A DNA stretch of 64,000 nucleotides from a bacterium (lineage in GTDB: Bacteria; Patescibacteriota; Minisyncoccia; JAUYLV01): NCBI GenBank assembly GCA_030649025.1, contig JAUSGO010000031.1:9745-73744 (forward strand), given 5' to 3'. Below, piece after piece: positions 13,250 to 63,253 of this stretch. The translations under genes and the position numbers were made by a program. The notes below the pieces were generated by a model. The model saw only the letters and a list, made by a program, of their open reading frames with translations, was not told the origin of the DNA and did not search any database. The number at the start of each line of letters is the position of its first letter. Within the stretch, counting starts at the first letter, position 1.

Positions 13250-13305
13250 ACTGCTTGAGCTTCTAGCTTTCGGTTAATAGCTTTTAGAAATATCCATCCC
13301 CAAAA

Positions 13306-13347
13306 GGAGGGTTTCCTATAAGCTACAATCTATGAGCTATAAGCTGA
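13306..13347. repeat. AGCT-rich palindromic intercistronic repeat (TATAAGCT family).
   Basis: Sequence ctataagctacaatctatgagctataagctg. Related copies occur at 24696-24791, 50427-50511, 59466-59537 and 60022-60109. Confidence 0.5.
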
Positions 13348-16150: not shown

Positions 16151-16151
16151 A

Positions 16152-16262
16152 GCAAAAATTTAAAATGCAAAAGTCAAAATGGAAAATTTAGGAATATCGT
16201 GGAAGTTTTTCTTGCAAGAAAAACTTCCACTCCTTAATTTTGATTTTTGATATTTGATTTTT
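16152..16262. repeat. Family-1 palindromic intergenic element: caaaat-repeat arms flanking a perfect hairpin, MITE/REP-like.
   Basis: Core hairpin GTGGAAGTTTTTCTTGCAAGAAAAACTTCCAC at 16209-16240, flanked by (caaaaNN)n on the left and (ttttgaN)n on the right. It is about 90% identical to the copy at 55926-56040. Confidence 0.7.
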
Positions 16263-16267
16263 TATTT

Positions 16268-27026: not shown

Positions 27027-28283
27027 CTATTCTTTCACTATGGATACGAACTTCCCTTTCGCAAGGAGCGTCTCGACCTCTTCATGCGCACTAAGCTCTA
27101 AAGCATCTTTTATCACTCTACCATTTTTCCTGGTGATGGAGTAGCCCCGGGCTAAAATTCCGCGGGGATTGAGCGTTTTGAGCAGATCGGAAATGCGCCG
27201 TATTTCCTGACGATACTTTTCCATGCGCCCCGAAAAAGCGGTCTGCAATCTTGAAGAAAGCATTCTTCCTTTTTCTATCTTTTCAAGAAGCGGCCGCGCA
27301 AGCCGCCTCATCGCCTCCCCAAGGCGTTCGGATGCCAAACGTGCGTGCCGTTGTATTAAGCTTCCGAGTTCGACTTCCCACGTATCCAATTCGAATTGAA
27401 CTCCCTCGCGAGAAGGTGTTACAACCTCGGCGGCATTTGAGGGCGTAGACGCCCGCAGATCGCAAGCAAGATCCGCCAAAGTAATGTCCCGCTCGTGCCC
27501 GACGCCAACCACCACCGGGATTTTTGAAGCGAAGATCGCCCGCGCAACGCTCTCGGTGTTAAATGCCGCAAGGTCCTCTAGCGACCCTCCCCCGCGTACC
27601 ACAACCAAAACATCGGGTACGGGCATGTGATCGTTAAAATACTGTACCGCACGGACAACCTCTTCCTCGGCTTTAGCACCCTGCACATGCACGTTCATGA
27701 ACGATATTTCAATGCCGCCCCAGCGGTTGTTGAGAATTCTCAGAAAATCAGAATACGCCGCCGCCTCACGCGAGGTGATAAGTCCGATCCGCTCCGGAAA
27801 GCGAGGCAGGGTTTTTTTACGCTCGGGCAAAAATAACCCCTCCGCTTCAAGCTTCCGCCGCATAATTTCAAAAGCGCGCTTAAGCGCCCCTTCACCGACC
27901 GGCTCAATGGATTTTACGCGGAACGTGTATTTTCCGTAGGGAACATAGAGACCCGGAGAACCGGTTACGAGAACTTCCATGCCGTCTTCCAATTCCGTAC
28001 GCAACTGGAATGCCATGATAAAACAATTCATGCGCGCCGCCTCATCCTTGAGATCGAAGTAGATGAACTTTCCGTTCTGCGAGCGTTTGAAGTCGCAAAC
28101 CTCTCCCCGAACTCGCACCATCACTTCAGAAAGTTCCGCATTCACAAAGTTGCTAAGCTCGGCTACCGTATAGATTTTTTGATCATCAAGCAGCATAAGA
28201 TTCCTAAAAACATCATACCATATTTGGGAACTTGACCCCCACACCTTTAGTGCGTTGACGGCGCAAAGCGCCGCGAACAGCAT
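27027..28283 (-). CDS. xseA: Exodeoxyribonuclease VII large subunit.
   Basis: N-terminal OB fold plus the catalytic domain. Confidence 0.9.
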   Translation of the reverse strand: MLFAALCAVNALKVWGSSSQIWYDVFRNLMLLDDQKIYTVAELSNFVNAELSEVMVRVRGEVCDFKRSQNGKFIYFDLKDEAARMNCFIMAFQLRTELEDGMEVLVTGSPGLYVPYGKYTFRVKSIEPVGEGALKRAFEIMRRKLEAEGLFLPERKKTLPRFPERIGLITSREAAAYSDFLRILNNRWGGIEISFMNVHVQGAKAEEEVVRAVQYFNDHMPVPDVLVVVRGGGSLEDLAAFNTESVARAIFASKIPVVVGVGHERDITLADLACDLRASTPSNAAEVVTPSREGVQFELDTWEVELGSLIQRHARLASERLGEAMRRLARPLLEKIEKGRMLSSRLQTAFSGRMEKYRQEIRRISDLLKTLNPRGILARGYSITRKNGRVIKDALELSAHEEVETLLAKGKFVSIVKE

Positions 28284-28372
28284 CTAAAGCAGGAGAAGAA
28301 TTTTCTTGGAAATACACTTCTTGCTATATGCCCACGCGTACCATATACGCACTAAAGGTGAGGGGGTTGACA

Positions 28373-40887: not shown

Positions 40888-40904
40888 ACTCGTGAGTAAA
40901 ACTC

Positions 40905-40990
40905 AAAAGATAAAAGTCAAAACTACAACTTAAAAATCAAAATTTTCTTCCAGAAAATTCTTGTAATCAAAAAATTCTCATTTTACGTTC
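40905..40990. repeat. Partial family-1 element: left caaaa-repeat arm plus a small hairpin.
   Basis: aaaactcaaaagataaaagtcaaaactacaacttaaaaatcaaaattttcttccagaaaatt. Confidence 0.4.
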
Positions 40991-44410: not shown

Positions 44411-44498
44411 TGGCGGAGGCGAGAGGATTCGAACCTCTGATACCTTGCGGTATACTCGCTTTCCAAGCGAGCGCACTCGACCGCTATGCGACGCCTCC
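44411..44498 (-). tRNA. tRNA-Ser(GGA) with a long variable arm and encoded CCA.
   Basis: GGAGGCG...CUCGC-UUGGAAA-GCGAG...long variable arm...AGAGG-UUCGAAU-CCUCU-CGCCUCC-G-CCA. Confidence 0.85.
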
Positions 44499-46545: not shown

Positions 46546-46560
46546 AAGCGCTTCGCTTAA

Positions 46561-46667
46561 ATTTAAAACTCAAAAGTCAAAAATCAAAATTTTGGAGTCT
46601 TGTGAAGGTTTTACGCGTAAAACCTTCATGCCTCAACAATTTTACATTTTGAGATTTACATTTTGCA
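46561..46667. repeat. Family-1 palindromic element, diverged copy.
   Basis: caaaa repeats, hairpin GTGAAGGTTTTACGCGTAAAACCTTCAT, then ttttga-type repeats. Confidence 0.5.
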
Positions 46668-47228
46668 TTAGAATTTCACTTTCACCGGCTCTTTGGCTGC
46701 GGGATTATCAAGATCAAAAAATTCTTTTTTGGCAAACCCAAACCATCCGGCGACGATATTCGAAGGAAAGGATTCCACTTTGGTGTTCAGCTCCATGACC
46801 ACGGAGTTAAAAAATCTCCGCGCGGCCTGGATCTTATCCTCCGTATCGGTCAGTTCGCGCTGCAACTCCAAAAAATTCTGATTGGCTTTCAGGTCCGGAT
46901 AATTTTCGGAGACCGCAAAGAGGGTCTTTAGGGCTCCGGAGAGCATGTTCTCGGCCTGCAAGTGCTCTTTGTTTTGCGTACCGCCGCTCTGCATCGCCCG
47001 CGTCCGCGCTTCCGTCACTTTCTCAAAAACCCCCTTTTCGTGACCGGCGTATCCCTTCACCGTCTCCAATAAATTCGGGATAAGATCGTACCGGCGTTTT
47101 TGCTGTACTTCGATGTCGGACTCGGCTTCCTGTGTTCGCTGGCGCAAGCGAATAAAGCCGTTATACATGGCAATAAACCAAAGTAGGAGAACAACGATAA
47201 GCGCAATGAGTATGTACCAGATATTCAT
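46668..47228 (-). CDS. LemA-family protein.
   Basis: N-terminal TM segment followed by the LemA domain. Confidence 0.85.
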   Translation of the reverse strand: MNIWYILIALIVVLLLWFIAMYNGFIRLRQRTQEAESDIEVQQKRRYDLIPNLLETVKGYAGHEKGVFEKVTEARTRAMQSGGTQNKEHLQAENMLSGALKTLFAVSENYPDLKANQNFLELQRELTDTEDKIQAARRFFNSVVMELNTKVESFPSNIVAGWFGFAKKEFFDLDNPAAKEPVKVKF

Positions 47229-48727: not shown

Positions 48728-48788
48728 GCCAATGTGATCTAAATTTTAAGCCGAGCTCGATGCGAGGCGTGAAAATTTAGCCATCACA

Positions 48789-49105
48789 TTGAGCACCCCG
48801 CCCTCTAAGCGTTTAGAGGATGATTCTTTTTCTGAGAGCTCGCCACGCACTCCCATAGTGCTTCAGTTTTCTTTCGCGCTCTCGGGCCACTTTCTCTGCC
48901 TGATAGGCTTCATAGTATATGAGTTCGCAGGGCCACTCTTTCTGATGCTCCGCAAGACGCCTGGGCAAATTGTTTGTATACCCAATGTACCACTCACCCT
49001 TTTTGCGATGTAGCACGTACGTGTAGTGCATAGAGGGCGGGGTAAAGAGCTTGTTGCTGAAATTCGTTCGCGACAAGGCGCTCCGAATTTCAGACAAGCT
49101 TATAC
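48789..49105 (-). mobile_element. GIY-YIG mini-element, copy A: IR-L, GIY-YIG ORF, IR-R, then a 17-bp conserved covarying hairpin.
   Basis: IR CACCCCGCCCTCT (48794-48806) pairs with AGAGGGCGGGG (49032-49042). Hairpin AGCTTGTCTGAAATTCG...CGAATTTCAGCAACAAGCT on the minus strand. Confidence 0.6.
48813..49031 (-). CDS. GIY-YIG nuclease family protein (YhbQ/UPF0213-like), 72 aa.
   Basis: MHYTYVLHRKKGEWYIGYTNNLPRRLAEH... is a GIY-YIG core. Paralog of the gene at 54412-54672. Confidence 0.75.
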   Translation of the reverse strand: MHYTYVLHRKKGEWYIGYTNNLPRRLAEHQKEWPCELIYYEAYQAEKVARERERKLKHYGSAWRALRKRIIL

Positions 49106-49600
49106 GTGCTTATCCGCAACCGAGGAGGCTGCATAGGATTCCGGCTTGATCTTGACCGCAAAGCCGTTGCCTAAAATCATGCCTACGACTTCTTTGATCA
49201 TGTCTCGCGTAGCGCCGAACTGGCCAATATCCACATGCACTTCAAGCTGGCAGACGCCGCTTGTGAGATACCCGTTCAATGATTCTCCAACGCCCTGGGT
49301 AAGTTCTTGAGCCAAAGCCAGCGAAAGCGATGCTTCGTGATAGATGCGCTGCCGAAGCGAGGGCATACGATTCTGGCGCGTTCTTATCCAAAAATATCTG
49401 GCGCGCGCGCCAATGCGATGTACCACGATGACGCTTACAAAATCCGTCTCCTCGCGCGCTTCGGAGGAATCCGTTCCCACAATAAGTTTGTAGGCACGGG
49501 ACGGTTCTTCCTCAATAAACTCCGACACCTCTCTAATAACGCCCGGAAACGCCAGCTCTCCTTTGGTGGGACTTGTGAACACTGAAAGATCGGAAAACAT
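49100..49600 (-). CDS. DUF458/YkuK-like RNase H-fold protein.
   Basis: Weak family resemblance. The stop codon is embedded in the hairpin of the GIY-YIG element. Confidence 0.4.
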   Translation of the reverse strand: MFSDLSVFTSPTKGELAFPGVIREVSEFIEEEPSRAYKLIVGTDSSEAREETDFVSVIVVHRIGARARYFWIRTRQNRMPSLRQRIYHEASLSLALAQELTQGVGESLNGYLTSGVCQLEVHVDIGQFGATRDMIKEVVGMILGNGFAVKIKPESYAASSVADKHV

Positions 49601-49643: not shown

Positions 49644-50426
49644 TTAGGTGCGCCGGCGCGTAAAAAGCGACAAGATAAAAATCGCGACAAGCGTAATAAC
49701 CACCGCGGGGCCCGGTAGAACCTCAAAACGTTCCGCAAAGACAAGTCCTCCGATCATGGAGAGCACCGAGACGGTGGAAGCGCCAAGGAACATGATGCGC
49801 AGATTTGGCGTGAAATTTTTTGCGATCGCCGCAGGGAGCACGAGCACCGCCCCCATCAGCAGTACCCCCATAAATTGAATGCCCAGAGCTACCGCAATGG
49901 CAATGATAAGAAAAAACAGCAAGCGCGTACGCTCAAGCGCAATGCCACTCGCGTGCGCCAGCTCCGCAGAGAGCGTAAGGAGCGCAAACTTCCGCGCCAA
50001 AAGCCATGTTGCAATCGTGACGAGTATGCCTCCGCAAAGGGATAATAGAGCGGATGAGCGCGTGAGCTTCGTGATATCTCCAAAAAGGGATTCGAGAAGA
50101 TGCTCTTCCGGAATGAGCAAGAGCCCTACTGCCAGCGCAACCATGAAAATAACACCCAGCGCGGTTTCCGGAGCTATGTTGTGGCGGGTTTCGAGCCTGA
50201 CAATAAGCAGAACCCCGAGTATAAGCATGAGGAGCCCGCCGAGCGAAGGGGAAACGCCGAACAGAAGCCCCAGCGCAATGCCCGGGAGGGCCACATGCGA
50301 AAATGCGTCCGCCACAAGCGCCATGCGCCGCAAAATCATAAAAACACCAAGAAACGAGGCGCCCACGGCGACCGAAATCGCGGCGGCAAGAACCAATGGT
50401 GAGGTTGGAGGAAGAAATTCTGGCAC
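49644..50426 (-). CDS. Metal (Zn/Mn) ABC transporter permease, ABC-3 family.
   Basis: Eight TM segments typical of ZnuB/MntB. Confidence 0.85.
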   Translation of the reverse strand: MPEFLPPTSPLVLAAAISVAVGASFLGVFMILRRMALVADAFSHVALPGIALGLLFGVSPSLGGLLMLILGVLLIVRLETRHNIAPETALGVIFMVALAVGLLLIPEEHLLESLFGDITKLTRSSALLSLCGGILVTIATWLLARKFALLTLSAELAHASGIALERTRLLFFLIIAIAVALGIQFMGVLLMGAVLVLPAAIAKNFTPNLRIMFLGASTVSVLSMIGGLVFAERFEVLPGPAVVITLVAIFILSLFTRRRT

Positions 50427-50511
50427 GCATAAAGCTTATAGCTGATAGCTTATAGCTTATAGAGATTTTGATGGCACCTATAAGCTATAACCTAAAAACT
50501 AAAAGCTGTGC
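50427..50511. repeat. AGCT-rich palindromic intercistronic repeat.
   Basis: aagcttatagctgatagcttatagcttatag...ctataagctataacc, with inverted arms. Confidence 0.5.
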
Positions 50512-51219
50512 TTAGTGTTTATGCTCATACAGCTGTATGTTTTGTCCGTACAGGCGCTTCAACTGGTCTTCGGTAAGCACGTCTTTTGGAGCTCCGGAAC
50601 ACAGGAGATTCCGGTTAAGGCACAGCACGTGATCCACAAACGTATAAAGAATATTGATATCATGTGAAATAAAAAATACCGACAGGTGGTATTCCTGGGC
50701 AAGATGTTTTACGAGATTATAGATGGTCGCTTCGCCGGCAAGATCAATGCCGCTGGTCGGCTCGTCAAAAAGCAGAACCTCCGGTTTTCCCATGAGCGCA
50801 TAAGCGATAAGGAGGCGCTGAAGTTCACCTCCGGACATCTCGCCGATGCTCCGGTTTTCCAGATGCCCAGCCTGCACATGTGCGAGCATGTCTTTGATGT
50901 CCCGAGAAAGTTCCTCCGACGGAAACCAAAAACCCTTCGAACCGCGCAATAAAAGAAGCTCTTTTCCCGTTAAGGGAAGCGATTTGTCGAAATCCAGTCT
51001 TTGGGGCACATAACCGATGCGCGCCTTTTTGTGCCATATGATCTCTCCTCTGTATGGGATGAGCCCGAGTATCGCGCGAAAAAGCGTCGTCTTGCCGGCG
51101 CCATTCGGACCGATGATGCCGAACACCTCTCCCTCCTCAACCGAAAAAGAGATATTCTCCAAAACCGTTTCTTTGCCGAATCGGACGGAGAGATTTTTTA
51201 CTTCAAGAATGATGGACAT
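50512..51219 (-). CDS. Metal ABC transporter ATP-binding protein (ZnuC-like).
   Basis: Walker A GPNGAGKTT, the LSGGE signature, and Walker B. Confidence 0.9.
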   Translation of the reverse strand: MSIILEVKNLSVRFGKETVLENISFSVEEGEVFGIIGPNGAGKTTLFRAILGLIPYRGEIIWHKKARIGYVPQRLDFDKSLPLTGKELLLLRGSKGFWFPSEELSRDIKDMLAHVQAGHLENRSIGEMSGGELQRLLIAYALMGKPEVLLFDEPTSGIDLAGEATIYNLVKHLAQEYHLSVFFISHDINILYTFVDHVLCLNRNLLCSGAPKDVLTEDQLKRLYGQNIQLYEHKH

Positions 51220-51237: not shown

Positions 51238-51345
51238 CTCATGCAAAAATTAAAATTCAAAAATCAAAGTTAAGGAGTGAAAGTTTTTCTTGTAAAAAAA
51301 CTCTCACGATATTCAAAAATTTTGCATTTTGAGTTTTGCATTTTG
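51238..51345. repeat. Family-1 palindromic element in inverted orientation.
   Basis: Hairpin GTGAAAGTTTTTCTTGTAAAAAAACTCTCAC flanked by caaaa and ttttg repeats. Confidence 0.6.
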
Positions 51346-51348
51346 AAT

Positions 51349-52626
51349 TTACCCTGGGAGACTGTTCGTACGAGCAATCTCTGCGTACACATCCGCCGAT
51401 GGCCGTTTTTTGCGCTCAAGGGTTTTACGGTCCACTTCAAAAAGCCCGAACCTCGGCCAAAATCCCTTGTCCCATTCGAAATTATCCAGAAGCGACCAGT
51501 AAAAATATCCCCGTACATCCACGCCTTCTTGAATGGCTTTGTGCACCCACTCCAGATGCTCTCTAATGAACCGTGCGCGCTTTTTATCTCCGGCATCGGC
51601 AATACCATTCTCGGTAATATAGACGGGCTTATGAGGGGCGCTAAGCTTTTTAAGAAGATGATATATGCCTTCGGGATAAATTTCCCATCCCATGTCCGAA
51701 ACAGCACGATTCTCATTGCGCACCGAGAAAGGAAATTTTACCCTTGAATGAAAATAGTAGTGGAGATCTAGAAAATCATGCGTATCCCCCGTAAGGCCAA
51801 AAAAATAGTCGTTTGACCAAAATCCAAAAAACCGCGCCGCCGCACGGTCAAGAAGCGAGGTGCTGTGCGGCTCCGTATATATAAGTATATTCCCAAAACC
51901 AACGCGAACGGACGGAAAAAGCCCATGCAGTATATTATAGGCTTCCCGGTGCGCGCGTGCGAGATTTTTTGCGGCACGATACGCCGCCACAACACTACGC
52001 TTTTGCGGCGGCCAAACCCCCCTAAGGTAGCCGTTCAAAAGTACGGATGTCGGCTCGTTCAATGTTATCCAGAATTGAACAAGATCTCCCAGAGATCCTC
52101 CAACCTTCTTTGCATATCGGGCGAAGTATTCCGGAAACCTATCATCCTCAACGCCGCCACGCCGGGAAATCCATACGGGCAGAGTCCAGTGCCACAAGGT
52201 GGTAAGTGGCTCCAGTCCGCGCTGGCGAAGCGCCCTTAATACCTTTCGATAATGTTCTATCTCTTTTTCGTCAAACACGCCCTCGCTCGGCTCAATGCGA
52301 GACCATTCGATAGAAAAGCGATGCGCGTTATGGCCCAGGGATTTAGCCAAGTCAAAATCCTCGGCATACCGCTCATAGTGACCGCAGGATGAACCGGACA
52401 CATAATTCTCGGCAGAAAACGCCTCCGGGGGAAGAGAAATCGCCGGGAGTCCGGAGGCGAGCCCCGCTTCCCGCACCGCACGCTTTTCGGCCTCGCGAGC
52501 AAGACGTCCGCCGTTCTTTTTCTCCCATTCCGTCCAATCGTTATGCATGCCACCCTCCACCTGATGAGCGCTGGTTGTGGCACCCCATAAGAAATTTTTT
52601 GGAAATTCTTTCGGAAACATGTACAC
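51349..52626 (-). CDS. GH1 beta-glucosidase.
   Basis: NEP and ITENG catalytic glutamate motifs. Confidence 0.9.
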   Translation of the reverse strand: MYMFPKEFPKNFLWGATTSAHQVEGGMHNDWTEWEKKNGGRLAREAEKRAVREAGLASGLPAISLPPEAFSAENYVSGSSCGHYERYAEDFDLAKSLGHNAHRFSIEWSRIEPSEGVFDEKEIEHYRKVLRALRQRGLEPLTTLWHWTLPVWISRRGGVEDDRFPEYFARYAKKVGGSLGDLVQFWITLNEPTSVLLNGYLRGVWPPQKRSVVAAYRAAKNLARAHREAYNILHGLFPSVRVGFGNILIYTEPHSTSLLDRAAARFFGFWSNDYFFGLTGDTHDFLDLHYYFHSRVKFPFSVRNENRAVSDMGWEIYPEGIYHLLKKLSAPHKPVYITENGIADAGDKKRARFIREHLEWVHKAIQEGVDVRGYFYWSLLDNFEWDKGFWPRFGLFEVDRKTLERKKRPSADVYAEIARTNSLPG

Positions 52627-52647: not shown

Positions 52648-52771
52648 AATCCGCATCACCCCGTTAGAAGTCGCAAACGCTCTTGCCCCGCTAGAGATAA
52701 TCCCGCCTTTGGCGGATGCCGGTTCCCCCGGAATCGGATCTCTAACGGGGTGAATCAGCGTCCTACTTCTA
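52648..52771. repeat. Nested inverted-repeat element with CCCCGTTAGAG-type termini (family 3).
   Basis: Outer IR caccccgttagaagt / acttctaacggggt. Inner IR ccccgctagagat / atctctaacgggg. Confidence 0.55.
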
Positions 52772-52826
52772 ACGGGGTCATACAAAAATGCCCCTTGCAG
52801 CATTGCAAGGGGCATTTTTCTCTAAA

Positions 52827-53429
52827 TCAAGAACGGATGCAATAGATCGTATCATTGGCAGCGCTTCCGCAATCGCGCGTCGGACAAGAATAGGTTGACG
52901 GCGCGCTGAACGTGCAGGTGACGGATGAAGCTCCCCCTATCCATCCTCCCCCGCCCTGCGAGCCGATGTTTCCGTCCTCGTCATTTACAAACCCCGCTTT
53001 CATGCTTGACGGCAATTCGAAAAATGACGTACGCAACAGCCATTGCTTGGGTTGAAGAGGCAATTCGGTATAGTATTCGTAACGCGAAGAGGCGGAACAG
53101 GATGCTCCCGCATCCTGCGGATCGCGAGGAAGCTGGGCAAGATAGCCGGAAAGTTGAGCCGCAAGGCCGCAGTATCCTTGAGGATCGGAATTCGGATAAC
53201 GCTTCTTGTCCTTGAAATATTGCTCAAGGGAAATGCGCACCTGATTAAGGTCGGCGAGCCTTCGTGCGTCTCTGGCCCTTTGGCGCGCCGAGAATATTGC
53301 TACCGTAACGATAGAAAGCAGAAGCGCCATAATGCCAACTACCACGAGCATTTCGACGAGCGTAAACCCCCTCACTAATCGGGGATTGGCGCAAAGTTTT
53401 TTGATGACATTAATTCTTCCCTTCATCAT
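52827..53429 (-). CDS. Type IV pilin / pseudopilin.
   Basis: Prepilin cleavage and methylation motif GFTLVEMLVV. Confidence 0.8.
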   Translation of the reverse strand: MMKGRINVIKKLCANPRLVRGFTLVEMLVVVGIMALLLSIVTVAIFSARQRARDARRLADLNQVRISLEQYFKDKKRYPNSDPQGYCGLAAQLSGYLAQLPRDPQDAGASCSASSRYEYYTELPLQPKQWLLRTSFFELPSSMKAGFVNDEDGNIGSQGGGGWIGGASSVTCTFSAPSTYSCPTRDCGSAANDTIYCIRS

Positions 53430-53620
53430 ATTTTAGCGAGTTTCGGAAAATTTGTGAGATCTAGCGCCGAAGGCACAATCCCCGATTAGTGTGGGGGTGA
53501 ATCCTTTTTTGATCTGCTGTATGCGCAACATCATAACATTACCGACCCCATCTCTTCTTTTAAAATTTCAAGAGTGGGGTCGGAATGAACGAAACAAGAA
53601 TTTTTGGTTCTTTCTGGGAC

Positions 53621-54394: not shown

Positions 54395-54711
54395 CCACAC
54401 CCCTACACCTTTTAAGCCCGGACGATGCTGCTTCGTATACGGCGTTTGAGCTGGCCCCAGGCTTTCCCATTGCGCTTCATCTGCTTCTCTCTTCGGGCAG
54501 CATCGTCCTGATCACCATATGCTTCGTAATATGCCAAAGTGAATGGTCTGCGAGGTTTTGTTGATTGCACAAGCCCGCGCTGATGTTCTGCAAATCTTTT
54601 CCGCAAATCACCGGTGAAGCCTAGATAGAGTTTATGATCGTGTTTACTTTTCAGAATATAGAAATAGTGCATGATTTGCAGAACATAGGCTTGAAAGGTG
54701 TGGGGGCACAG
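54395..54711 (-). mobile_element. GIY-YIG mini-element, copy 2: the ORF is bracketed by the 13-bp IR CACCCCTACACCTTT / AAAGGTGTGGGGG.
   Basis: The IR arms lie at 54397-54411 and 54695-54707 and flank the ORF. Same architecture as copy A but with different IR sequence. Confidence 0.5.
54412..54672 (-). CDS. GIY-YIG nuclease family protein, 86 aa.
   Basis: MHYFYILKSKHDHKLYLGFTGDLRKRFAEH... Paralog of the gene at 48813-49031. Confidence 0.75.
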   Translation of the reverse strand: MHYFYILKSKHDHKLYLGFTGDLRKRFAEHQRGLVQSTKPRRPFTLAYYEAYGDQDDAARREKQMKRNGKAWGQLKRRIRSSIVRA

Positions 54712-54716
54712 CCTAT

Positions 54717-55925
54717 CTAGCCGGCCGTTGAGACGCTGTTATAGATGGGGAGCAAAATGGACAAAACGAGCACCAAAACCCCGCCGCCCAGAACCAAGAT
54801 GACCAGCGGCTCGATGAGGGTAGTGAGATTCTCCGTCATGCTGTCAACTTCACGCGCGTAGAACCGCGAAAGGCTCGCCAGAATACTATCGAGCTTCCCC
54901 GACCGCTCTCCCACGGAGATCATCTGCGAAACCATAAGCGGCATGTGCGGCGACTTCTGGAACACCGAACTTATCGTATTGCCCGCTTTCACTTCCTCCA
55001 TGCTCTTTTTTATCAGCGCGACGTATACCTCGTTACCGACCACGCGGGAGGTGACGTCGAGCGCCTTGATAATGGGAAGCCCGCCTTTGATGAGCGTGGA
55101 GAGATTTTCTGAAATTCTCGAGATATAAAGTTTGGTGAACATGTCCCCCAAAACCGGAAATTTAAGAAGAAGCCTGTCCGTGATGGCTTTACCTTGCGGC
55201 GTTTGCACCACCCAGCGTCCTGCAAAAAATAGCGCTCCCGCGATAAGCGGAAGCGTGAACCACCAATGCTGAAAGAAGGAACTTGCGGCAATGAGTATTT
55301 TTGTGGGAAGGGGCAGCTCCGTTCCGAGCTCCGTCAGTACGGAGGTGAGCTTTGGGATAACGAAGATCATGAGGAAAATGGTTATCAGGATGAAAACAAT
55401 GATAATCACCGCAGGATACATGAGCGCCCCGCGGACCTTCTGCATGAGCGCATATTCCTTCTCTTCGTGATTGGCGAGATAATCAAGGGATTCCTGCAGT
55501 CTTCCCGACACTTCTCCGGATTCCACCATGCTCACATAATACTTGGAGAAGATCTTCGGATACTTGGCAAGCGTCTGGGAGAAAGCAGTTCCGGCATCCA
55601 CTTCTTCGGCCATCGCGCCCAGCACGCTTCGGAAGTATTCATTATCCGTCTGCACCCCGAGCGTCCGCAGACTTTCCACCAAGGGAACGGTTGCTTCAAA
55701 AAGCGTGGCAAGCTGCCGCGAAAAGATAACGATATCCTTGTTTTTGACACTCTGAAAAAGCTTCGAGAGCGAACTCAAGAATTTGGAGTGCTGTACCTGC
55801 TCCAGGGAGACAACTACCAGATTATTGCGATGAAGCAGGTCTAGCGCGGCATCCTGCGTTGCGGCTTCAACCATGCCGTTTTGCGTCTCTCCGTTTTTTG
55901 TTCTGGCGGTATAACTGAACTGCAT
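54717..55925 (-). CDS. pilC: Type IV pilus assembly platform protein PilC (GspF family).
   Basis: Two GspF repeats and three TM segments. Confidence 0.9.
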   Translation of the reverse strand: MQFSYTARTKNGETQNGMVEAATQDAALDLLHRNNLVVVSLEQVQHSKFLSSLSKLFQSVKNKDIVIFSRQLATLFEATVPLVESLRTLGVQTDNEYFRSVLGAMAEEVDAGTAFSQTLAKYPKIFSKYYVSMVESGEVSGRLQESLDYLANHEEKEYALMQKVRGALMYPAVIIIVFILITIFLMIFVIPKLTSVLTELGTELPLPTKILIAASSFFQHWWFTLPLIAGALFFAGRWVVQTPQGKAITDRLLLKFPVLGDMFTKLYISRISENLSTLIKGGLPIIKALDVTSRVVGNEVYVALIKKSMEEVKAGNTISSVFQKSPHMPLMVSQMISVGERSGKLDSILASLSRFYAREVDSMTENLTTLIEPLVILVLGGGVLVLVLSILLPIYNSVSTAG

Positions 55926-56040
55926 TAAAGAAATTCAAAATGCAAAACTCAAAATGCAAAATTTAGGAATATCGTGAAAGTTTTTCTTCAAAAAACTTTC
56001 ACTCCAAAATTTTGATTTTTGATTTTTGATTTTGCTTAAA
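55926..56040. repeat. Family-1 palindromic element.
   Basis: caaaatgcaaaactcaaaatgcaaaatttaggaatatcGTGAAAGTTTTTCTTCAAAAAACTTTCACtccaaaattttgatttttgatttttgattttg. Confidence 0.7.
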
Positions 56041-56043
56041 TCA

Positions 56044-57120
56044 TCATTTCAACGATGATTTGAGCATCATATGAAGCTCTTGCGGATTTTGGGAATACGC
56101 TTCGGCGTCTTCGAAGGCAATGGCGCCCGTGTGCACCAGCGTTGACAAAGACTTGTTAAGCGAGATCATGCCTTCGTCGGCGCTCGTCTCAATGACCAGA
56201 TCAAGCTGATGGGTCTTTCCCTCGCGGATGAGCGTGCGTATCGCCGAATTTGCCACCATAAGCTCGACCGCGGGTATCACTCCCCCTCCGATACGGGGAA
56301 TGAGGCGCTGGGAAATAATGCCCAGCAAAGAACTGGAAAGCTGTGACTTTATCTGTCCTTGGGCTTGCGGCGGAAACGAGTCGATGATGCGGTCAATGGT
56401 TTGCGCCGCGGAATTCGTATGGAGGGTGGAAAAAATGAGATGCCCTGTTTCGGCAGCCGTGACCGCGGCCGCGATGGTTTCGGGGTCCCGCATTTCTCCT
56501 ATCATCACCACGTCGGCGTCCTGGCGGAACACACTGCGCAACGCCCGGTGAAATGACAGCGAATCGTGATAAACTTCGCGCTGGTCAATAATCGCCCTAT
56601 CGGGAGAAAAAATGTACTCTATGGGATCCTCGATGGTAATGATGTGGTCTGCCCGCGTATGGTTTATTTCATCTATAATAGCCGCCAGCGTCGTGGATTT
56701 GCCATGTCCGGTGGGACCGGCCACCAGCACGAATCCCTGAGAAGGTTTTACGAATTCACGCACGATGGGAGGAAGCGACAGCTCCTCCATGGTCCGAATC
56801 TTCGTGGGAATAAGCCGCATGGCTACCGACAAAAACCCGCGCTGAAAAAAAACATTCACGCGGAAGCGCGCCTTTTCTTTGTAGTCGAACGACATGTCCA
56901 TTTCCTTGTCGCGCGCAAGCTGTTCCGACTGCTCTTTGGAGAGCATGATGCCTACAATACCGCGCGTGTACTCGGCGGTTGAAAAATCTTTCTTGCTGAT
57001 GGCATACAACACCCCGTCGATACGAAGCGAGGGGTGGCGGCCCACCGTCAAATGCAGATCCGATGCATTCTGTTTTATCACGGTGCTTAGAAGATCGTCG
57101 AGTTCAAGTTCGTAGTTCAT
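56044..57120 (-). CDS. pilT: Twitching motility ATPase PilT.
   Basis: GPTGHGKSTT Walker A plus the PilT Asp and His boxes. Confidence 0.9.
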   Translation of the reverse strand: MNYELELDDLLSTVIKQNASDLHLTVGRHPSLRIDGVLYAISKKDFSTAEYTRGIVGIMLSKEQSEQLARDKEMDMSFDYKEKARFRVNVFFQRGFLSVAMRLIPTKIRTMEELSLPPIVREFVKPSQGFVLVAGPTGHGKSTTLAAIIDEINHTRADHIITIEDPIEYIFSPDRAIIDQREVYHDSLSFHRALRSVFRQDADVVMIGEMRDPETIAAAVTAAETGHLIFSTLHTNSAAQTIDRIIDSFPPQAQGQIKSQLSSSLLGIISQRLIPRIGGGVIPAVELMVANSAIRTLIREGKTHQLDLVIETSADEGMISLNKSLSTLVHTGAIAFEDAEAYSQNPQELHMMLKSSLK

Positions 57121-57224
57121 CCCGTTAGAGGCAGGTCGCGGTCTTCTGGGACCGAACTGCCTGATAAATAGTAAGAATTCATTAAAAAGTTTACTTCATT
57201 TAAATCCTCGCTAGCGACCGCGGC
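57121..57224. repeat. Family-3 inverted-repeat element abutting the pilT start codon.
   Basis: CCCGTTAGAGGCAGGTCGCGGTC ... GACCGCGGCCTCTAACGGG, about 20-bp arms. Confidence 0.55.
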
Positions 57225-57258
57225 CTCTAACGGGATTCGTACCATTGTTCATTTCAGC

Positions 57259-57681: not shown

Positions 57682-59460
57682 TCACTCTTCCACTTCCGTT
57701 TCTACGGTCTGCAACACCTCCTCAAGCGTGGTAAATCCCTGCAGGACTTTTTGGAGACCATCTTGCTTCATGGTAACCATATTCTGACGCCTGGCTTCTT
57801 CCTGAAGTTTTTCTTCGGTAACGCCGGAAAGCACGATGCGCTCAAGCTGGGGGGTCATCGTGAGCATTTCATAAATAGCAATTCTCCCCTTCAACCCTTT
57901 ATTGCCGCATTTCTTGCAACCCTTAGCTTCCCATAGCTTAAGCGGGGGAACAAGGGATATGATGGATTTATTCTCTTCGGGCAGGCTCTGCAATTCTTTC
58001 AAGATAAGATCTTCTTTTTCTTTTGGAGCGGGAACCTGGATTCTGCAGTCCTGGCATAATTTTCGCACAAGCCGCTGTGCTACGGCAAGAAGTATGGAAG
58101 AAGGAAGCAGAAACGGCTGAACACCCATGTCAATGAGACGCGGAAAAACGCCCAGAGCATCGTTCGTGTGGAGCGTAGACAGCACGAGGTGTCCCGTAAG
58201 CGCGGCGTGCACCGCAAGTTCCGCCGTTTCGTTGTCTCGAATTTCGCCGACCATGATGATGTCGGGGTCCTGGCGCAAAATTGAACGGAGACCCGAGGCA
58301 AAAGTATAGTCCACTTCCGGCTGGATCTGCGACTGGTTGATGCCTTCGATAAAATACTCCACCGGATCCTCCAGCGAGATGATGTTCACGCCTTCTTCGT
58401 TGAGCGTGCTGAAAACCGAGTATAGCGTTGTCGTCTTGCCCGATCCGGTGGGACCCGTGATGAGCATCATGCCGAAAGGCTTGTCGATGGCCAGTTCCAG
58501 AAGCCGCAGATTCCTTCCCTGAAGACCCAATCCCTCAAAAGTCTTGATCCCCACGATAGGATCCAAAATACGCAGTACTGCCTTCTCGCCAGTTACCGTA
58601 GGCAGAATGGAGACGCGGAAATCGATCTTCCGGTTTTCCAGCCTGGTGTGGAAACGGCCGTCCTGGGGCTTTCGCGTTTCGTCTATTTTGAGATTCGAGA
58701 GGATTTTGATGCGCGCGGTTACCGCCGCATGCACCTGCTTGGGAAGAATGATGGACGTATGCAACACGCCGTCCACCCGGAACCGCACGCGCACTTCTTT
58801 CTCTATGGGCTCTATGTGAATATCGGACGCCCTCCCTTCAATGGCATGCTTCAAAATTACGGCCACCATTTTGGTGATAGGAGCCTCTTCACCAAGCTCT
58901 TCTTCTCCTTTTTTCTTGGAAGCCGCCAATGCCGCCCCTCCGGCATCTTTCTCCTTTCCGGATGCGATTTCATGCTGTAACTCCTCGAGCGCTTTTTCAA
59001 CTTCGCCCTTAAGCGTTCTGTATTGTTTCAGGATGTCCAGAAAATCCTGCGGGCTCACCAAAAATATCTTGGCGACAAGCCCGAGCCGCAGAGCTATGAA
59101 TTGCAGAGCCTCCTGCGCCACGACATCTTCCGGCGACAGCATGCCTACTTCAAGGATACGCGCGGCCTTATCGACTTTGATGGGAAAGAACCGGTAGTGT
59201 TTCGCCGCCTCTTCGGGAATCTCGCGCAATGTTTCATAATTTGCCTGAAAACCGGCAAGATCCCGATACGGAAATCCTGAAAATTTTGATTTTGCTTCCA
59301 GGAGTTTTTTTTCGTCAATAAGCCGCCGCGCATAGATGATCTCCATCGCGTCTTTATCTTCATCTTTTTCCGCTTTTATAATTTCTTTGCAGACATCCTC
59401 ATCGAGCAGTTTCTCTGCAACCAGGTATTCAAGAAAAGTTTTTTGAGAATCGGAAACCAC
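57682..59460 (-). CDS. pilB: Type IV pilus assembly ATPase PilB (GspE family).
   Basis: GSPII_E N-terminal domain, GPTGSGKTTT, and a C-terminal tetracysteine motif. Confidence 0.9.
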   Translation of the reverse strand: MVSDSQKTFLEYLVAEKLLDEDVCKEIIKAEKDEDKDAMEIIYARRLIDEKKLLEAKSKFSGFPYRDLAGFQANYETLREIPEEAAKHYRFFPIKVDKAARILEVGMLSPEDVVAQEALQFIALRLGLVAKIFLVSPQDFLDILKQYRTLKGEVEKALEELQHEIASGKEKDAGGAALAASKKKGEEELGEEAPITKMVAVILKHAIEGRASDIHIEPIEKEVRVRFRVDGVLHTSIILPKQVHAAVTARIKILSNLKIDETRKPQDGRFHTRLENRKIDFRVSILPTVTGEKAVLRILDPIVGIKTFEGLGLQGRNLRLLELAIDKPFGMMLITGPTGSGKTTTLYSVFSTLNEEGVNIISLEDPVEYFIEGINQSQIQPEVDYTFASGLRSILRQDPDIIMVGEIRDNETAELAVHAALTGHLVLSTLHTNDALGVFPRLIDMGVQPFLLPSSILLAVAQRLVRKLCQDCRIQVPAPKEKEDLILKELQSLPEENKSIISLVPPLKLWEAKGCKKCGNKGLKGRIAIYEMLTMTPQLERIVLSGVTEEKLQEEARRQNMVTMKQDGLQKVLQGFTTLEEVLQTVETEVEE

Positions 59461-59465
59461 ATGAA

Positions 59466-59537
59466 TAGCTTTTAGCTTATGGCTTATGGCTTTTAGGGAA
59501 TATCATTGTGCCCTATAAGCTATAAGCTGTAAGCTAT
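59466..59537. repeat. AGCT-rich palindromic intercistronic repeat.
   Basis: tagcttttagcttatggcttatggcttttaggg-loop-ccctataagctataagctgtaagcta. Confidence 0.55.
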
Positions 59538-59586
59538 GCGCTGTTTATTGCTCATAGCAATCCAAAATCAAAGATAGTCCGAAACT

Positions 59587-60021
59587 TCACAATGGCAATT
59601 CAAAAGACAAAGAGGGCTCCGGAGTAAAAGTCGGCGGAGAAGATGTAACTGAAAGAACGGGGGTCGCCAGTGATTGCTTCAAAAAAGGATTTGGGTTCCC
59701 TTTTTCCGGAACGGTTACGGGATTATCTTTTGAATATGTTCTCAATTCCTTAAACAGCTCGCTCTTCACCACCTCGGTATCGAGTTTTATGCGCCCAATG
59801 TCGAGAGCGGGAACGGTTCTCGAACCTCCGCGAGAAGTTTGGGATTGGGGAACAGCCTGGGTTTGAGAAGAAACTTCTTGGCTAGATAACAGGGCGGGAG
59901 AGTAAAAAAATACGCGATACACGATAATGCCGGCCACTATGAAGAATGTACCGGCAATAATAAGCAGGCGTTTTTGTTTCGGATCTTTTAATTGAGACTG
60001 GAAGTTTGTTTGAAAGGCCAC
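59587..60021 (-). CDS. Membrane-anchored hypothetical protein, possibly a PilP-like pilus assembly protein.
   Basis: One TM segment. Its position between pilO and pilB is the only functional evidence. Confidence 0.35.
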   Translation of the reverse strand: MAFQTNFQSQLKDPKQKRLLIIAGTFFIVAGIIVYRVFFYSPALLSSQEVSSQTQAVPQSQTSRGGSRTVPALDIGRIKLDTEVVKSELFKELRTYSKDNPVTVPEKGNPNPFLKQSLATPVLSVTSSPPTFTPEPSLSFELPL

Positions 60022-60109
60022 ACGAATAGCTTTTAGCTTTTAGCTTTTAGCTTTTAGGGGGACGGCGCGGTCAGTTCCTATAAGCTACGGGCTATGAGCT
60101 ATGAGCCGC
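60022..60109. repeat. AGCT-rich palindromic intercistronic repeat.
   Basis: (agctttt)4...cctataagctacgggctatgagctatgagc. Confidence 0.55.
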
Positions 60110-60670
60110 TTATGTTTGTAGACCGTAGTACATGCGCACACTTAGATTAAAAGTGAAGAGTTGTGATCCTTCCCCTGACGGAACCGAGAATTGCAGCGCC
60201 CACACGTCTATGATGCGAAGTTCTTTTTCAAGAGCTTTCAGGAACCCGTCCAACGCTTCATAACTTCCCGTCACGGAGATGCTTGCTTGCATCGTCTGAT
60301 ACGGGAGGGATCCTTGGGTCTTCGATCTCGTTGTTGCGTCCAATGCGGTCTCGCTGACATTAAAAGAGATGTCGTCAAGCGTCATGCCGTTTTGCGAGGC
60401 TATTTCCGGAATTTCGACAAGAAGATTCGGAATATCGGGCATTGGGGGGAAGATCTGCGCGACTTTTGATGCAACATCTTCCACTTCGCGATACTGGGCT
60501 TCAAGATTTTTAATCTTGGATACGAGAAGCTGTTTTTCCTGCAACGCCTCTTCGGCCTGGGTGCGCGCGACCTTCGCTTCTCCGAGACCTCGGTATTCGG
60601 GCAATACCAACCACACTACCACTGCAATGGTACCGAGGGACAGGAGAGCAATGAAGAGTTTTTTGAGCAT
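60110..60670 (-). CDS. PilO-like pilus assembly protein.
   Basis: TM segment, coiled coil, then a ferredoxin-like domain. Operon position supports the call. Confidence 0.55.
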   Translation of the reverse strand: MLKKLFIALLSLGTIAVVVWLVLPEYRGLGEAKVARTQAEEALQEKQLLVSKIKNLEAQYREVEDVASKVAQIFPPMPDIPNLLVEIPEIASQNGMTLDDISFNVSETALDATTRSKTQGSLPYQTMQASISVTGSYEALDGFLKALEKELRIIDVWALQFSVPSGEGSQLFTFNLSVRMYYGLQT

Positions 60671-61364: not shown

Positions 61365-61499
61365 GCCAATGTCGTCTAACCCAGCCGTCTAAGCTCTAAA
61401 AAATAGCTTCGGGCTGAATGATAGTACATTATTTTTCTTGATGATTTATTTTTCTTTTTATGTATAGACGGCTGGGTTAGCTACGACGTTGAGCACCCC

Positions 61500-61655
61500 G
61501 CCCTCTAAGCCATTTTAATATATTCTCGGAAATCTTTCTCGCCTTCTTGCCAAAGCGGCTCTTGTCTACACATCCCTATCGCATAGAGGGCGGGGTAAGG
61601 TTTTGTTCCTGCGTTTCGTTCGCAACAAAGCGCTTCGAAACGCAGACAAAGCCCT
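61500..61655 (-). repeat. ORF-less (MITE-like) derivative of the GIY-YIG element, copy B.
   Basis: Same IR (gagcaccccgccctctaag / atagagggcggggtaa) and a covarying 17-bp hairpin CTGCGTTTCG...CGAAACGCAG. Only a short ATGC remnant of the ORF start remains. Confidence 0.6.
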
Positions 61656-62869
61656 TATATTTCCTTCATTGCAAGCCCTGCGGCATTGGCAAGCTCGGGA
61701 CCGATAAGCCCGGAGACGGGAACAAGATCTTTAGGAAGCGAAATGTGGGAAAAAGGGCTAACCGTTTGCACGGACAGGCGAAGGCGGGATGCGAAATACT
61801 CATCAAGTCCCCTAAGTAGTGCGGTGTTTCCCGAAAGGATCAGGCGGGTTATCTGCCTGGAACTTGTTTTCCAATATGCAGACATCACCCGCTCGACTTC
61901 ACGCGCAAGAGCTTCAAGCAACGGCAAGTATGCGGTGACTATTTCTTTTTCTCCGCCGCTTGCATAAAGCCCGAAGGTCTGCTTGTAACTTTCCGCCCGC
62001 TCCATATCCGTTCCCAAAGCCCGGGAGCATGCCCGGGTAAAATCGCTCGATGCGATGCCGACATGATGGGCGATGCGCAAAGATCCTTCGTCAAAAACCG
62101 CAATACTCGAAGAAAATGCGCCCATATCGAGCAGGAGAACTGCCGTCTTTTCATCCAGAGCTCCGGCGCGCGCAAGAGCAAAAGATTCTATTTCAAGACC
62201 CATCAACGTAAGTTCCGACAATTGGGCGATGCGCACATATTTCTGCACCATGTCCCGCGGAGCTGCCATAAGTAAAACCTTGGTGCCTTGGTGCTTCGGG
62301 CTAAAAGACGGTGTTTCTTTTTGAGACTGTGTTGACGCGTTCTTTTCTTCCATTGTCATCGCGCCACCGACATTCTGCGTCCTTGGAGATTGGTCCGTAA
62401 GAGAATTGGGTAGAGCGGGTTCTGCCCGGGTAAGATCGGATTTTTTTGTTGTCTCTACGATCTTCCAATCAAGGACCACCTCGGAGATGGGAATGGGTAT
62501 ATACTCGCGCGCCTGGAGCGGAACTGCATTTGCCATCGCCTTCTCGTCAAGAATCGGCATTTCCATAATGGTCACGAACGTTGAAAAAATTGGCAGAGAC
62601 ATGACCGCGGTATCGGTTGTGAACCCGGATTCTTTTATGAGAAATTTTATGTACTGCGCTATTCGGGCTTCTTCCAGATCAAATAGAAGACCTCGGACAC
62701 TTTCATCTCCCGGCGAGCGTTTTGGAGCCAGCACCGCGTAATTTAAAAGATTGAAATGGCTATTGGATTCCCGCCGGAGCTCCACGATCTTAATTGATGA
62801 CGTGCCAATATCAATGCCGAGCACCGATGTAACGCGTTTCTTGAATATGAAATCAAGTGGATTGAACAT
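61655..62869 (-). CDS. pilM: Type IV pilus assembly protein PilM (actin-like ATPase fold).
   Basis: IGIDIGTSSIKIVEL N-terminus and the PilM/FtsA fold. Confidence 0.8.
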   Translation of the reverse strand: MFNPLDFIFKKRVTSVLGIDIGTSSIKIVELRRESNSHFNLLNYAVLAPKRSPGDESVRGLLFDLEEARIAQYIKFLIKESGFTTDTAVMSLPIFSTFVTIMEMPILDEKAMANAVPLQAREYIPIPISEVVLDWKIVETTKKSDLTRAEPALPNSLTDQSPRTQNVGGAMTMEEKNASTQSQKETPSFSPKHQGTKVLLMAAPRDMVQKYVRIAQLSELTLMGLEIESFALARAGALDEKTAVLLLDMGAFSSSIAVFDEGSLRIAHHVGIASSDFTRACSRALGTDMERAESYKQTFGLYASGGEKEIVTAYLPLLEALAREVERVMSAYWKTSSRQITRLILSGNTALLRGLDEYFASRLRLSVQTVSPFSHISLPKDLVPVSGLIGPELANAAGLAMKEI

Positions 62870-62921
62870 GCTAATGTCGTCTAAAATTATAAGCGGAGCT
62901 CATGGCGTAGCGCAATAATTT

Positions 62922-63118
62922 TATCTACGACATTGAGCACCCCCTCACTCATCCTTGCGAGAGTTTTTCGATATACAAAACCAGTGAGCCGCAGGCGGCT
63001 TCGCCTTTTCAGCTACATATAGCGAAAATGTCTTGCCGGGATGAGTGAGGGGGTAAAGAGCGTGTTGCTGAAATCCTTTCACGCAGAGGCGCTCGGGATT
63101 TCAGACACGCTTATACTA
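62922..63118 (-). repeat. ORF-less derivative of the GIY-YIG element, copy C, with compensatory IR changes.
   Basis: IR caccccctcactcatcc / ggatgagtgagggggta. Hairpin CTGAAATCC...GGATTTCAG. Outer AGCGTGT/ACACGCT covaries with AGCTTGT/ACAAGCT in copy A. Confidence 0.6.
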
Positions 63119-63253
63119 TACCACGAAAGACGGATATGAGACGACGGGCTATCCACATAGCCTATTGGCGTAGCAATACAATAAGAGTCTCAATAAGTCA
63201 AAATCCCGCAGAACATTGCGGGATTTCGGCTCATTGAACGAATTTCCAATAAT

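Follow-up and report, generated by a model that had tools for sequence, protein, structure and literature searches.

The window analyzed here, a stretch of 64,000 nucleotides (nt) from a bacterium of the Patescibacteriota (contig JAUSGO010000031.1, positions 9,745 to 73,744), carries three homologous minus-strand elements, A (48728-49101), C (61365-61656), and D (62870-63112), the first of which encloses the gene for a small GIY-YIG nuclease. Nearly all window genes around the elements lie on the minus strand, and the elements are described in that direction. Each consists of a hairpin (P1), a short linker (CTTTA or CTTA), a 16-nt box, an insert, the inverted box, and a further hairpin (P3), in that order. 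A second GIY-YIG gene lies in a separate cassette, B, and a degenerate cassette, E, is nested in element C. The parts are listed below with their matches to a covariance model built for P1.

49100-49600, RNaseH-like (DUF458) gene upstream of element A, its TAA stop codon overlapped by P1
49045-49101, minus strand, element A P1: basal stem, 2-nt bulge, upper stem, and apical GAG-mini-hairpin-CGAA; model match of 66.3 bits
49028-49043, minus strand, element A 5' box ACCCCGCCCTCTATGC, in which the ATG is the GIY-YIG start codon
48813-49031, minus strand, element A gene for a single-domain GIY-YIG nuclease of 72 amino acids (aa), with the family-invariant Tyr, Tyr, Arg, His, and Glu all present
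48795-48810, minus strand, element A 3' box GCTTAGAGGGCGGGGT, repeating the 5' box in inverted form except for a conserved T-T mismatch
48728-48794, minus strand, element A P3, an inverted P1 paralogue that directly abuts the ATG (48727) of an exonuclease-like gene
61597-61656, minus strand, element C P1, overlapping the pilM stop codon (61655-61657); model match of 68.9 bits
61495-61596, minus strand, element C boxes, as in A (61581-61596 and 61495-61510), with an insert of 78-79 nt that holds no open reading frame (ORF) and falls in the medium size class
61365-61494, minus strand, element C P3, formed by strands 61478-61494 and 61365-61379 and ending at the pilN-like ATG (61364)
61379-61477, minus strand, degenerate cassette E, ACCCAGCCGTCT ... 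AGACGGCTGGGT (inverted repeat 61376-61480), enclosed by the P3 strands of element C
63056-63112, minus strand, element D P1, following a promoter-like stretch, TATAGTATAAG, upstream of pilM; model match of 57.9 bits
63039-63054 and 62939-62954, minus strand, element D boxes ACCCCCTCACTCATCC and GGATGAGTGAGGGGGT, with compensatory changes relative to the A type and an ORF-less insert of 84 nt between them
62870-62938, minus strand, element D P3, ending at the pilM ATG (62869)
54400-54706, minus strand, cassette B, the gene for an 86-aa GIY-YIG protein (54412-54672) with boxes CCCCCACACCTTT (54694-54706) and AAAGGTGTAGGGG (54400-54412)

The initial annotation, made from the sequence alone, had described two small GIY-YIG genes bracketed by inverted repeats, and both are present as claimed, in A between ACCCCGCCCTCTATGC and GCTTAGAGGGCGGGGT and in B between CCCCCACACCTTT and AAAGGTGTAGGGG. 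It had also placed a hairpin on the side of the ORF start, seated on the stop codon of the upstream gene. This hairpin is P1, which occurs in A, C, and D and begins at the upstream stop codon in A and C, overlapping the TAA of the DUF458 gene and of pilM by 2 nt; in D, P1 instead comes after the promoter-like stretch. P3, which lies between the 3' box and the next ATG and ends within 0-1 nt of that ATG in the window elements, had been overlooked. The further claim that two ORF-less copies share the termini of the gene-bearing one holds for C, which has A-type boxes, but not for D, whose termini are alike in structure and not in sequence. By repeat finding, the P1 copies (approximately 57 nt) of A, C, and D form one repeat family of 66-85% identity. 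The sequence TTGAGCACCCC occurs in the window three times exactly and once with one mismatch, giving four matches against a chance expectation of 0.9 with up to one mismatch. Element sequence also folds more stably than shuffled sequence (z = -4.0 and -7.9).

The identification of both small ORFs as GIY-YIG proteins is borne out by matches to the Pfam profile PF01541 above its curated cut-off of 22.6 bits, at 34.1 bits (E-value 3.5e-8) for the 72-aa protein and 56.7 bits (E-value 3e-15) for the 86-aa protein. Each protein consists of the GIY-YIG domain alone, and residues Y5, Y15, G17, R25, H29, and E53 are invariant in an alignment of 54 family sequences. Among proteins of solved structure, the UPF0213 members 1zg2 (E-value 9e-10) and 1ywl are the best matches. 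NCBIfam gives no match for the 72-aa protein and for the 86-aa protein only TIGR01453, at 16.3 bits against a cut-off of 56, and PADLOC matches neither. More than 100 close relatives of the 72-aa protein carry source names of Parcubacteria-group bacteria, and a profile search with its family yields 821 clusters at E-values of 1e-10 or below.

Relatives of the whole element are found well beyond this contig. Thirty-five loci were fetched from reference genomes, and metagenome contigs scanned with the 3' box plus four bases gave at least 120 more; conservation of the 3' arm in the metagenome sample is hence partly a product of how it was chosen, whereas the 5' arm is independent of the search. 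Altogether, at least about 150 copies exist outside the window in public genomes and metagenomes, mostly of Parcubacteria type and many of them from groundwater samples of the Hainich, with hosts including Wolfe-, Jorgensen-, Kuenen-, Nealson-, Harrison-, Yanofsky-, Staskawicz-, and Liptonbacteria. In almost all of the 35 reference-genome loci the ORF lies between the same boxes, though the proteins are just 55-80% identical. No box position falls below 93% conservation in a set of 140 elements, oriented and non-redundant, and the T-T mismatch is kept in 128. Counts of G-T against A-C pairs in the boxes are biased, the 3' arm being fixed by the search pattern. Viral contigs, scanned for the 3' box and for box hairpins with short loops, gave only chance matches in G+C-rich phage DNA, and a literature search of incomplete coverage returned no account of such elements in bacteria of the Candidate Phyla Radiation (CPR). 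The family of A, C, and D is apparently undescribed, large, and CPR-wide.

Measured between the 11-nt box cores, the inserts fall into three classes of 21-30, 75-81, and 215-231 nt (approximately 27, 78, and 222 nt), with hardly any between them. After de-duplication, the matches listed comprise 25 short, 76 medium, and 47 long elements. The long form is that with an intact GIY-YIG ORF of the 72-aa type: nearly all of the 33 extracted are intact, at 71-75 aa. The ORF starts in or just after the 5' box and in most copies ends within the 3' box, at the TAG of GCTTAGAGGG; element A differs in having a TAA stop codon 2 nt upstream of the 3' box. Medium inserts are A+T-rich and form sequence subfamilies, the largest with 29 members, and hold no conserved ORF and no convincing -35/-10 pair. 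At an orthologous site upstream of a mraZ-like gene, the medium element of L119, aligned with the long element of L045 (L numbers are labels of the fetched comparison loci), looks like an internal deletion sparing roughly the first 25 and the last 50 nt of the ORF, and in element C the 3' part of the insert retains a likeness to the 3' end of the GIY-YIG gene. On the basis of these two likenesses, the medium and short forms, C and D among them, are read as probable internal-deletion derivatives of the long form. The idea that ORF-less copies are relics of gene-bearing ones thereby gains an alignment in its favor.

The hairpins themselves are under selection. In an RNAalifold alignment of 13 long P1 hairpins, from the window and from unrelated contigs, 16 of the 18 base pairs show compensatory double changes. 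Pairing on this structure is found in 92% of cells compared with 70% in shuffled alignments, and 44 cells are changed on both sides compared with 11.4 in shuffles, a count reached by 0 of 500. Sliding the 3' partner by one to three columns reduces pairing to 33-56%. The set shares the 2-nt bulge and an apical motif, RAG-mini-hairpin-CGMAG. A compact variant of the element retains only the apical motif upstream, as TTGAG-hairpin-CGAAA, and has downstream a 15-nt tail, GCTCAYNNNRTTCGC, which forms a small hairpin (the short P3: GC, then a UC-UC mismatch, then AY-loop-RU). Covariation is seen at three of its four pairs, and the 18 cells with double changes are equaled by none of 500 shuffles. The covariation proposed earlier from the window copies is real and strong; a role at the RNA level is not implied by it, given the inverted symmetry described below. 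A candidate H-type pseudoknot, pairing GAGC with GCTC and GCGAA with TTCGC across P2, was rejected, as the tail varies (ACTCA...TTCGT) without matching changes in the upstream motif. Two independent hairpins, each an inverted copy of the other, explain the pattern better.

This two-fold inverted symmetry is the result that most changes the interpretation of the elements. The P1 covariance model scores all three P1 hairpins in the window at 58-69 bits and also matches P3 on the opposite strand, at 62871-62943 of the plus strand in D (E-value 0.005) and 48730-48799 of the plus strand in A (E-value 0.012). At other loci, pairs of model matches on opposite strands flank the boxes in at least 12 cases, with E-values from 1e-8 to 1e-4. 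A GA-clamped mini-hairpin (GA-NN-loop-N'N'-GA) precedes the left box by 1-6 nt on the sense strand in 76 of 137 elements and lies 2 nt from the right box on the antisense strand in 83 of 137, while on the wrong strand it occurs in 3 and 1 elements and in shuffled flanks in approximately 17 and 12. Each end thus comprises a hairpin, either long (P1 or P3) or a compact GA mini-hairpin, together with a box, and the two ends are inverted copies. Terminal inverted repeats of the sort that delimit miniature inverted-repeat transposable elements (MITEs) are present at three levels: the boxes, P3 as an inverted P1, and the mirrored GA hairpins. An RNA transcribed from the sense strand would have no need of such symmetry, and its right end would show tandem U-C mismatches and not G-A. 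By raw folding energy, P1 is more stable on the sense strand and the P3 side on the antisense strand, and composition-corrected folding z-scores are equal on both strands. Because the ends are inverted copies with GA mini-hairpins on opposite strands, the symmetry is taken as evidence that the hairpins matter in DNA, extruded or single-stranded on opposite strands, although a transcript would fold too.

Cassette B represents a second subfamily, without the A-type P1 or P3. Relatives of its 86-aa protein are found in only a handful of contigs, and CCCCCACACCT-like boxes surround the gene in four of the five different loci examined, these being cassette B of the window, L170/171 (GGCCCCCACACCTTTT and AAAAGGTGTGGGGGC), L165/166 (CCCTCACACCTTGAA), and L032 (ACCCCCACACCTAATCAGCAT). 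This covariation of protein subfamily and box, along with the invariance of the boxes in sequence, is the main reason for supposing that the nuclease recognizes the box. At 28235-28367, far from the B-type GIY-YIG gene, two boxes of the B type, ACCCCCACACCTTTAGTGCGT ... ACGCACTAAAGGTGAGGGGGT, enclose an insert of 91 nt and probably represent an ORF-less derivative of this family. Within cassette B, a perfect 14-nt inverted repeat (54583-54596 and 54673-54686) pairs the 5' leader of the 86-aa gene with its own coding region and could mask the start codon of the gene in the mRNA.

Orthologous sites differ in whether an element is present. The gene order DUF5667, pilM, and pilN-like is kept in four relatives whose PilM proteins are 51-60% identical. 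Downstream of pilM, the window has element C with the nested cassette E, 290 nt in total; L173 has an element whose P1 and P3 are homologous and whose boxes are of the B type (ACCCCCACACCTAT); in L172 the space is taken by unrelated A+T-rich repeats; and L174 and L175 have gaps of just 31 and 21 nt, the empty state. Upstream of pilM, the site is empty in L172 and L173. There, L172 reads TGTGGATAGG...TATAAT-TAAAGC-ATG, and the window reads TGTGGATAG...TATAGT-ATAAGC, then element D, then ATG, so that D appears to have been inserted after a -10-like box and before the start codon. The single TGTGGATAG upstream of pilM (near 63150 in the window) is conserved in the window, L172, and L173.

Other orthologous sites, with flanks 70-81% identical, differ in whether the form present is long, medium, or short. 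Clusters of similar proteins follow the site in part, as upstream of rpsP (84-90% identity), and in part cut across sites. The protein of L045, upstream of mraZ, is 89% identical to that of L107 at another site; L005 and L006, at different sites on one contig, are reciprocal best matches at 79%; and the closest relative of copy A (L001, 82%) has neighbors that are not homologous to those of A. No empty-site comparison is available for site A itself, as the DUF458 homologs in L152 and L077 have other downstream neighbors. No target-site duplication is found at the compared junctions of A, C, D, and L173, where TATAAGC and CATTRGC, the sequences at the ends, recur from copy to copy and are not duplicated for each one. 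The suggestion of a small mobile cassette with relics is therefore favored by empty-site polymorphism and by related ORFs at different sites, but it lacks the support of target-site duplication. Homing as the mechanism of spread is inferred.

The elements are closely fitted to the genes around them. A co-oriented ORF starts within 120 nt of the 3' box in 113 of the 125 elements with enough downstream sequence, and in 64 of these 113 the ATG lies at +15 to +18, directly past the short P3; in the long variant, the ATG likewise follows directly after P3. The downstream proteins have normal N-termini (L21, S16, MraZ, MreB, S18, and others), and the upstream stop codon is often the TGA of TTGAGC or a TAA at the base of P1. 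Most genes of this genome have no Shine-Dalgarno sequence, and many have a TATACT, TATAGT, or TATAAT box approximately 7 nt before the ATG (e.g., at 49600, 51219, 52620, 43838, and 2785), which suggests leaderless mRNAs. A promoter scan found nothing coinciding with parts of the elements.

Two of the roles initially proposed for the hairpin gain no support. It had been suggested that the hairpin could be a small self-cleaving ribozyme, yet no Rfam ribozyme model matches the elements: Rfam 15, run on the whole window at gathering thresholds, finds only a tRNA-Ser, and a search of 61400-63200 at E-values up to 10 returns only chance matches to miRNA models. The tRNA-Ser (GGA), at 44411-44498 on the minus strand, is the sole Rfam or ARAGORN match in the window. 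Ordinary rho-independent terminators fare no better, as a terminator scan calls none of P1, P2, and P3, and the hairpins have no T tract, their tails being CTTTACCCC or GCTCA. A terminator-like hairpin distinct from the elements lies downstream of the DUF5667 gene at 63190-63237 (AAATCCCGCA...TGCGGGATTTCGG on the plus strand, with a TTTT run on the minus strand); it was not called in the terminator scan covering its region.

Several other repeats share the window with the elements. Further box-type inverted repeats with inserts of 75-130 nt occur at 61376-61480, 53366-53498, 28235-28367, 52655-52781, and 57119-57236. Some box types recur in unrelated loci, with no ORF in the stretches examined: ACCCCGTTAGAR in eight cases and ACCCAGCCGTCT in two. 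The box family ACCCCGTTAGAR ... YTCTAACGGGGT, with inserts of 35-109 nt, is found in the window at 52655-52781, as a nested double, and at 57119-57236, and elsewhere at L003, L009, L046, L047, L068, L085, and L091. The repeat at 53366-53498 is a 23-nt inverted repeat, ACCCCCACACTAATCGGGGATTG (minus or coding strand, 96% complementary), with its 3' arm within the portion of a type IV pilin gene that codes for the leader peptide (...RLVRG/FTLVEML). A+T-rich intergenic repeats of the types AAAATGCAAAAGTCAAAATG... and TTTTGATTTTTGATTTT... lie upstream of several genes (16147-16266, 46550-46676, 51245-51363, and 55922-56047) and also at 23035-23083 and 40898-40951, and the same kind fills the L172 gap downstream of pilM. 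A second repeat family, with TAGCTTATAGCT and CTATAAGCTATAAGC units (4010-4047, 13248-13350, 50423-50512, 59457-59547, and 60018-60112), is partly palindromic (50433-50507) and sits directly upstream of start codons. Outside the window, arrays of GTGGGGATAAC and TGTGGATAA spaced by approximately 10-11 nt precede the element in front of mraZ (L008-L011, L016, L018, L021, L023, L031, and L045) and are probably the MraZ operator or DnaA-box-like repeats.

Judged by layout, the closest known system is Ssn/NTS. SsnA is a 94-aa single-domain GIY-YIG nuclease of single-stranded DNA, and oriented hairpin repeats stand on both sides of its gene (Chenal et al., 2025; PMC11893778). These NTS repeats are also dispersed in hundreds of copies, and the arrangement has been likened by its authors to an insertion sequence (IS; PMC11893778). 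The elements described here similarly encode a tiny single-domain GIY-YIG protein, of 72-86 aa, which like SsnA falls within a range of approximately 70-100 aa. Their gene is flanked on both sides by hairpin repeats with adjoining conserved sequence, the repeats are also dispersed without the gene, nuclease variants are paired with repeat variants, and the layout is IS-like. The repeat sequence, however, is unrelated. The SRM motif (HGTCWY N0-2 YYVSBRH N0-5 WNVSBRG N0-2 RNCYNB) has two matches in the 64 kb (1845 and 49445), neither of which flanks a GIY-YIG gene or an element. Unlike in Ssn, the ends stand close together in one compact cassette with three discrete insert sizes, the box is 3' of the hairpin, the elements fill gaps from stop to start codon, and the hosts are CPR bacteria. 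The likeness to the Ssn family (cd10448) lies in architecture and size; the nearest solved relatives are UPF0213 proteins.

Likeness to other mobile DNA is partial. As with repetitive extragenic palindromes (REPs), bacterial interspersed mosaic elements, and their REP-associated tyrosine transposases (RAYTs), or with IS200/IS605, short intergenic hairpin repeats flank a cognate small nuclease gene and have many non-autonomous copies and no target-site duplication. The enzyme here, though, is a GIY-YIG protein and not an HUH Y1 transposase, and the end hairpins are on opposite strands where those of REP-RAYT and IS200/IS605 are on the same strand. MITEs and the dRS3-flanked intergenic mosaic elements of Neisseria offer a parallel in their terminal inverted repeats, uniform-size deletion derivatives, intergenic position, and effects on neighboring genes, but the present elements have no DDE transposase partner and no target-site duplication, and they are set apart by their structured hairpin-plus-box ends and exact abutment to start codons. 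No autonomous transposase partner of the kind known for MITEs is found, the GIY-YIG gene being the sole ORF. Free-standing GIY-YIG homing endonucleases (Seg of phage T4 and the I-TevI family) share the catalytic domain, the intergenic position, the presence and absence at orthologous sites that was found here, and, if the mechanism considered below is right, copying into cut alleles. Those enzymes are of at least 200 aa, with a separate DNA-binding domain and no bracketing inverted repeats, whereas here the 72-aa catalytic domain is the whole protein.

The interpretation preferred here, with a probability of roughly 0.55, is that of a GIY-YIG nuclease element with inverted hairpin-plus-box ends and non-autonomous derivatives, which is IS- or MITE-like and resembles Ssn-NTS. 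By analogy with Ssn/NTS, and from the covariation of subfamily and box, the nuclease would recognize and cut its own hairpin-plus-box ends, probably in single-stranded or extruded form. The gene may spread when an ORF-less or empty copy is cut and a full copy then serves as template, the shared ends providing homology, and internal deletions would give rise to the medium (approximately 78 nt) and short (approximately 27 nt) non-autonomous forms. Having no promoter of its own, and being co-oriented with its neighbors and filling the gap from stop to start codon, the element is probably read through in host transcripts, in which the inverted repeats would fold and bury the start codon of the nuclease. 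A more ambitious version of this proposal holds that the elements form a new class of insertion element in which the only protein is a GIY-YIG nuclease of approximately 72 aa. Such an element would move through hairpin-ended single-stranded DNA and insert precisely at the junction of stop and start codon, perhaps at the melted start of leaderless genes, with each nuclease subfamily co-evolved with its own end box; in this full form, we regard the proposal as unlikely.

Several points weigh against a mobile nuclease element. A nuclease activity, a cut site, and a transposition intermediate all have to be supposed, and strand transfer is beyond what a hydrolytic GIY-YIG enzyme can do alone. The junctions of A, C, D, and L173 show no target-site duplication, and the tightness of the length classes is not accounted for. 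At many sites occupancy is stable across diverged genomes: the element upstream of rpsP is always of the long form, and that upstream of mraZ is long in 11 loci (with L119, at an orthologous mraZ-like site, medium). Such stability is as compatible with vertical retention or domestication as with mobility. Strict polarity and abutment to start codons are not what purely selfish DNA would predict, and this exact abutment to coding sequence, with translation beginning behind a structure, is the main point for a role at the RNA level.

A rival view is that these are immobile copies of a domesticated host system of the Ssn kind, in which a nuclease of single-stranded DNA and its dispersed recognition repeats modulate the recombination or integration of imported DNA, as SsnA and NTS do in Neisseria. 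It is favored by the keeping of elements over long times at the same sites, although the flanks are just 70-80% identical between genomes, and by the clear purifying selection on the protein; seven of the approximately 10 box elements of the window lie inside a type IV pilus and DNA-uptake cluster (52.6-63.2 kb), and the architecture parallels NTS-ssnA-NTS. The gene, however, always lies within its own box pair, and several ORF copies at different sites in one genome (L005 and L006), empty-site polymorphism, and the absence of the canonical SRM motif also count against domestication, which we consider an improbable account of the whole. The abutment would also suit a cis-acting RNA module of the host, in which P1, P2, and P3 form an intercistronic or 5' untranslated structure for mRNA processing, stability, or start-codon selection and the GIY-YIG ORF is a passenger in the P2 loop. 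Such a module would be consistent with the co-oriented ORF within 120 nt in 113 of 125 elements, the ATG 15-18 nt past the 3' box in 64, the overlap of upstream stop codons with the left hairpin, the strong covariation, and the placement of element D between a TATACT-like box and the pilM ATG in a genome where genes mostly without a Shine-Dalgarno sequence and with TATACT-like boxes suggest leaderless mRNAs. It does not explain why an RNA should have inverted symmetry, with the G-A clamp of the right end on the antisense strand and P3 an inverted P1, nor why composition-corrected folding scores are equal on both strands, why the boxes are conserved in sequence beyond what pairing requires, or why box type tracks nuclease subfamily. 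There is also no Rfam match, and an RNA module as the primary explanation appears quite doubtful. That the hairpins begin at upstream stop codons would also suit ordinary rho-independent terminators, or a small self-cleaving ribozyme, standing beside unrelated GIY-YIG genes. With no T tract after P1, P2, or P3 and no terminator called, no Rfam ribozyme match even at E-values up to 10 over 61400-63200, the next gene starting immediately past P3, and the same boxes bracketing the ORF in approximately 50 independent loci, this is very improbable.

The genomes of CPR bacteria, or Patescibacteria, are very small and dense, and up to about 10 structured repeats in 64 kb, placed exactly from stop to start codon, imply something either strongly selfish or useful. 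The pairing of a tiny GIY-YIG nuclease with hairpin repeats, known from Ssn/NTS since 2025, is here extended to another repeat, another architecture, and another branch of the bacteria. The many natural pairs of nuclease and box are candidates for sequence-specific nucleases of single-stranded DNA. Finally, an insert that comes in three discrete sizes and ends that abut start codons offer handles on how such elements and gene expression coexist in organisms that seemingly use leaderless mRNAs.

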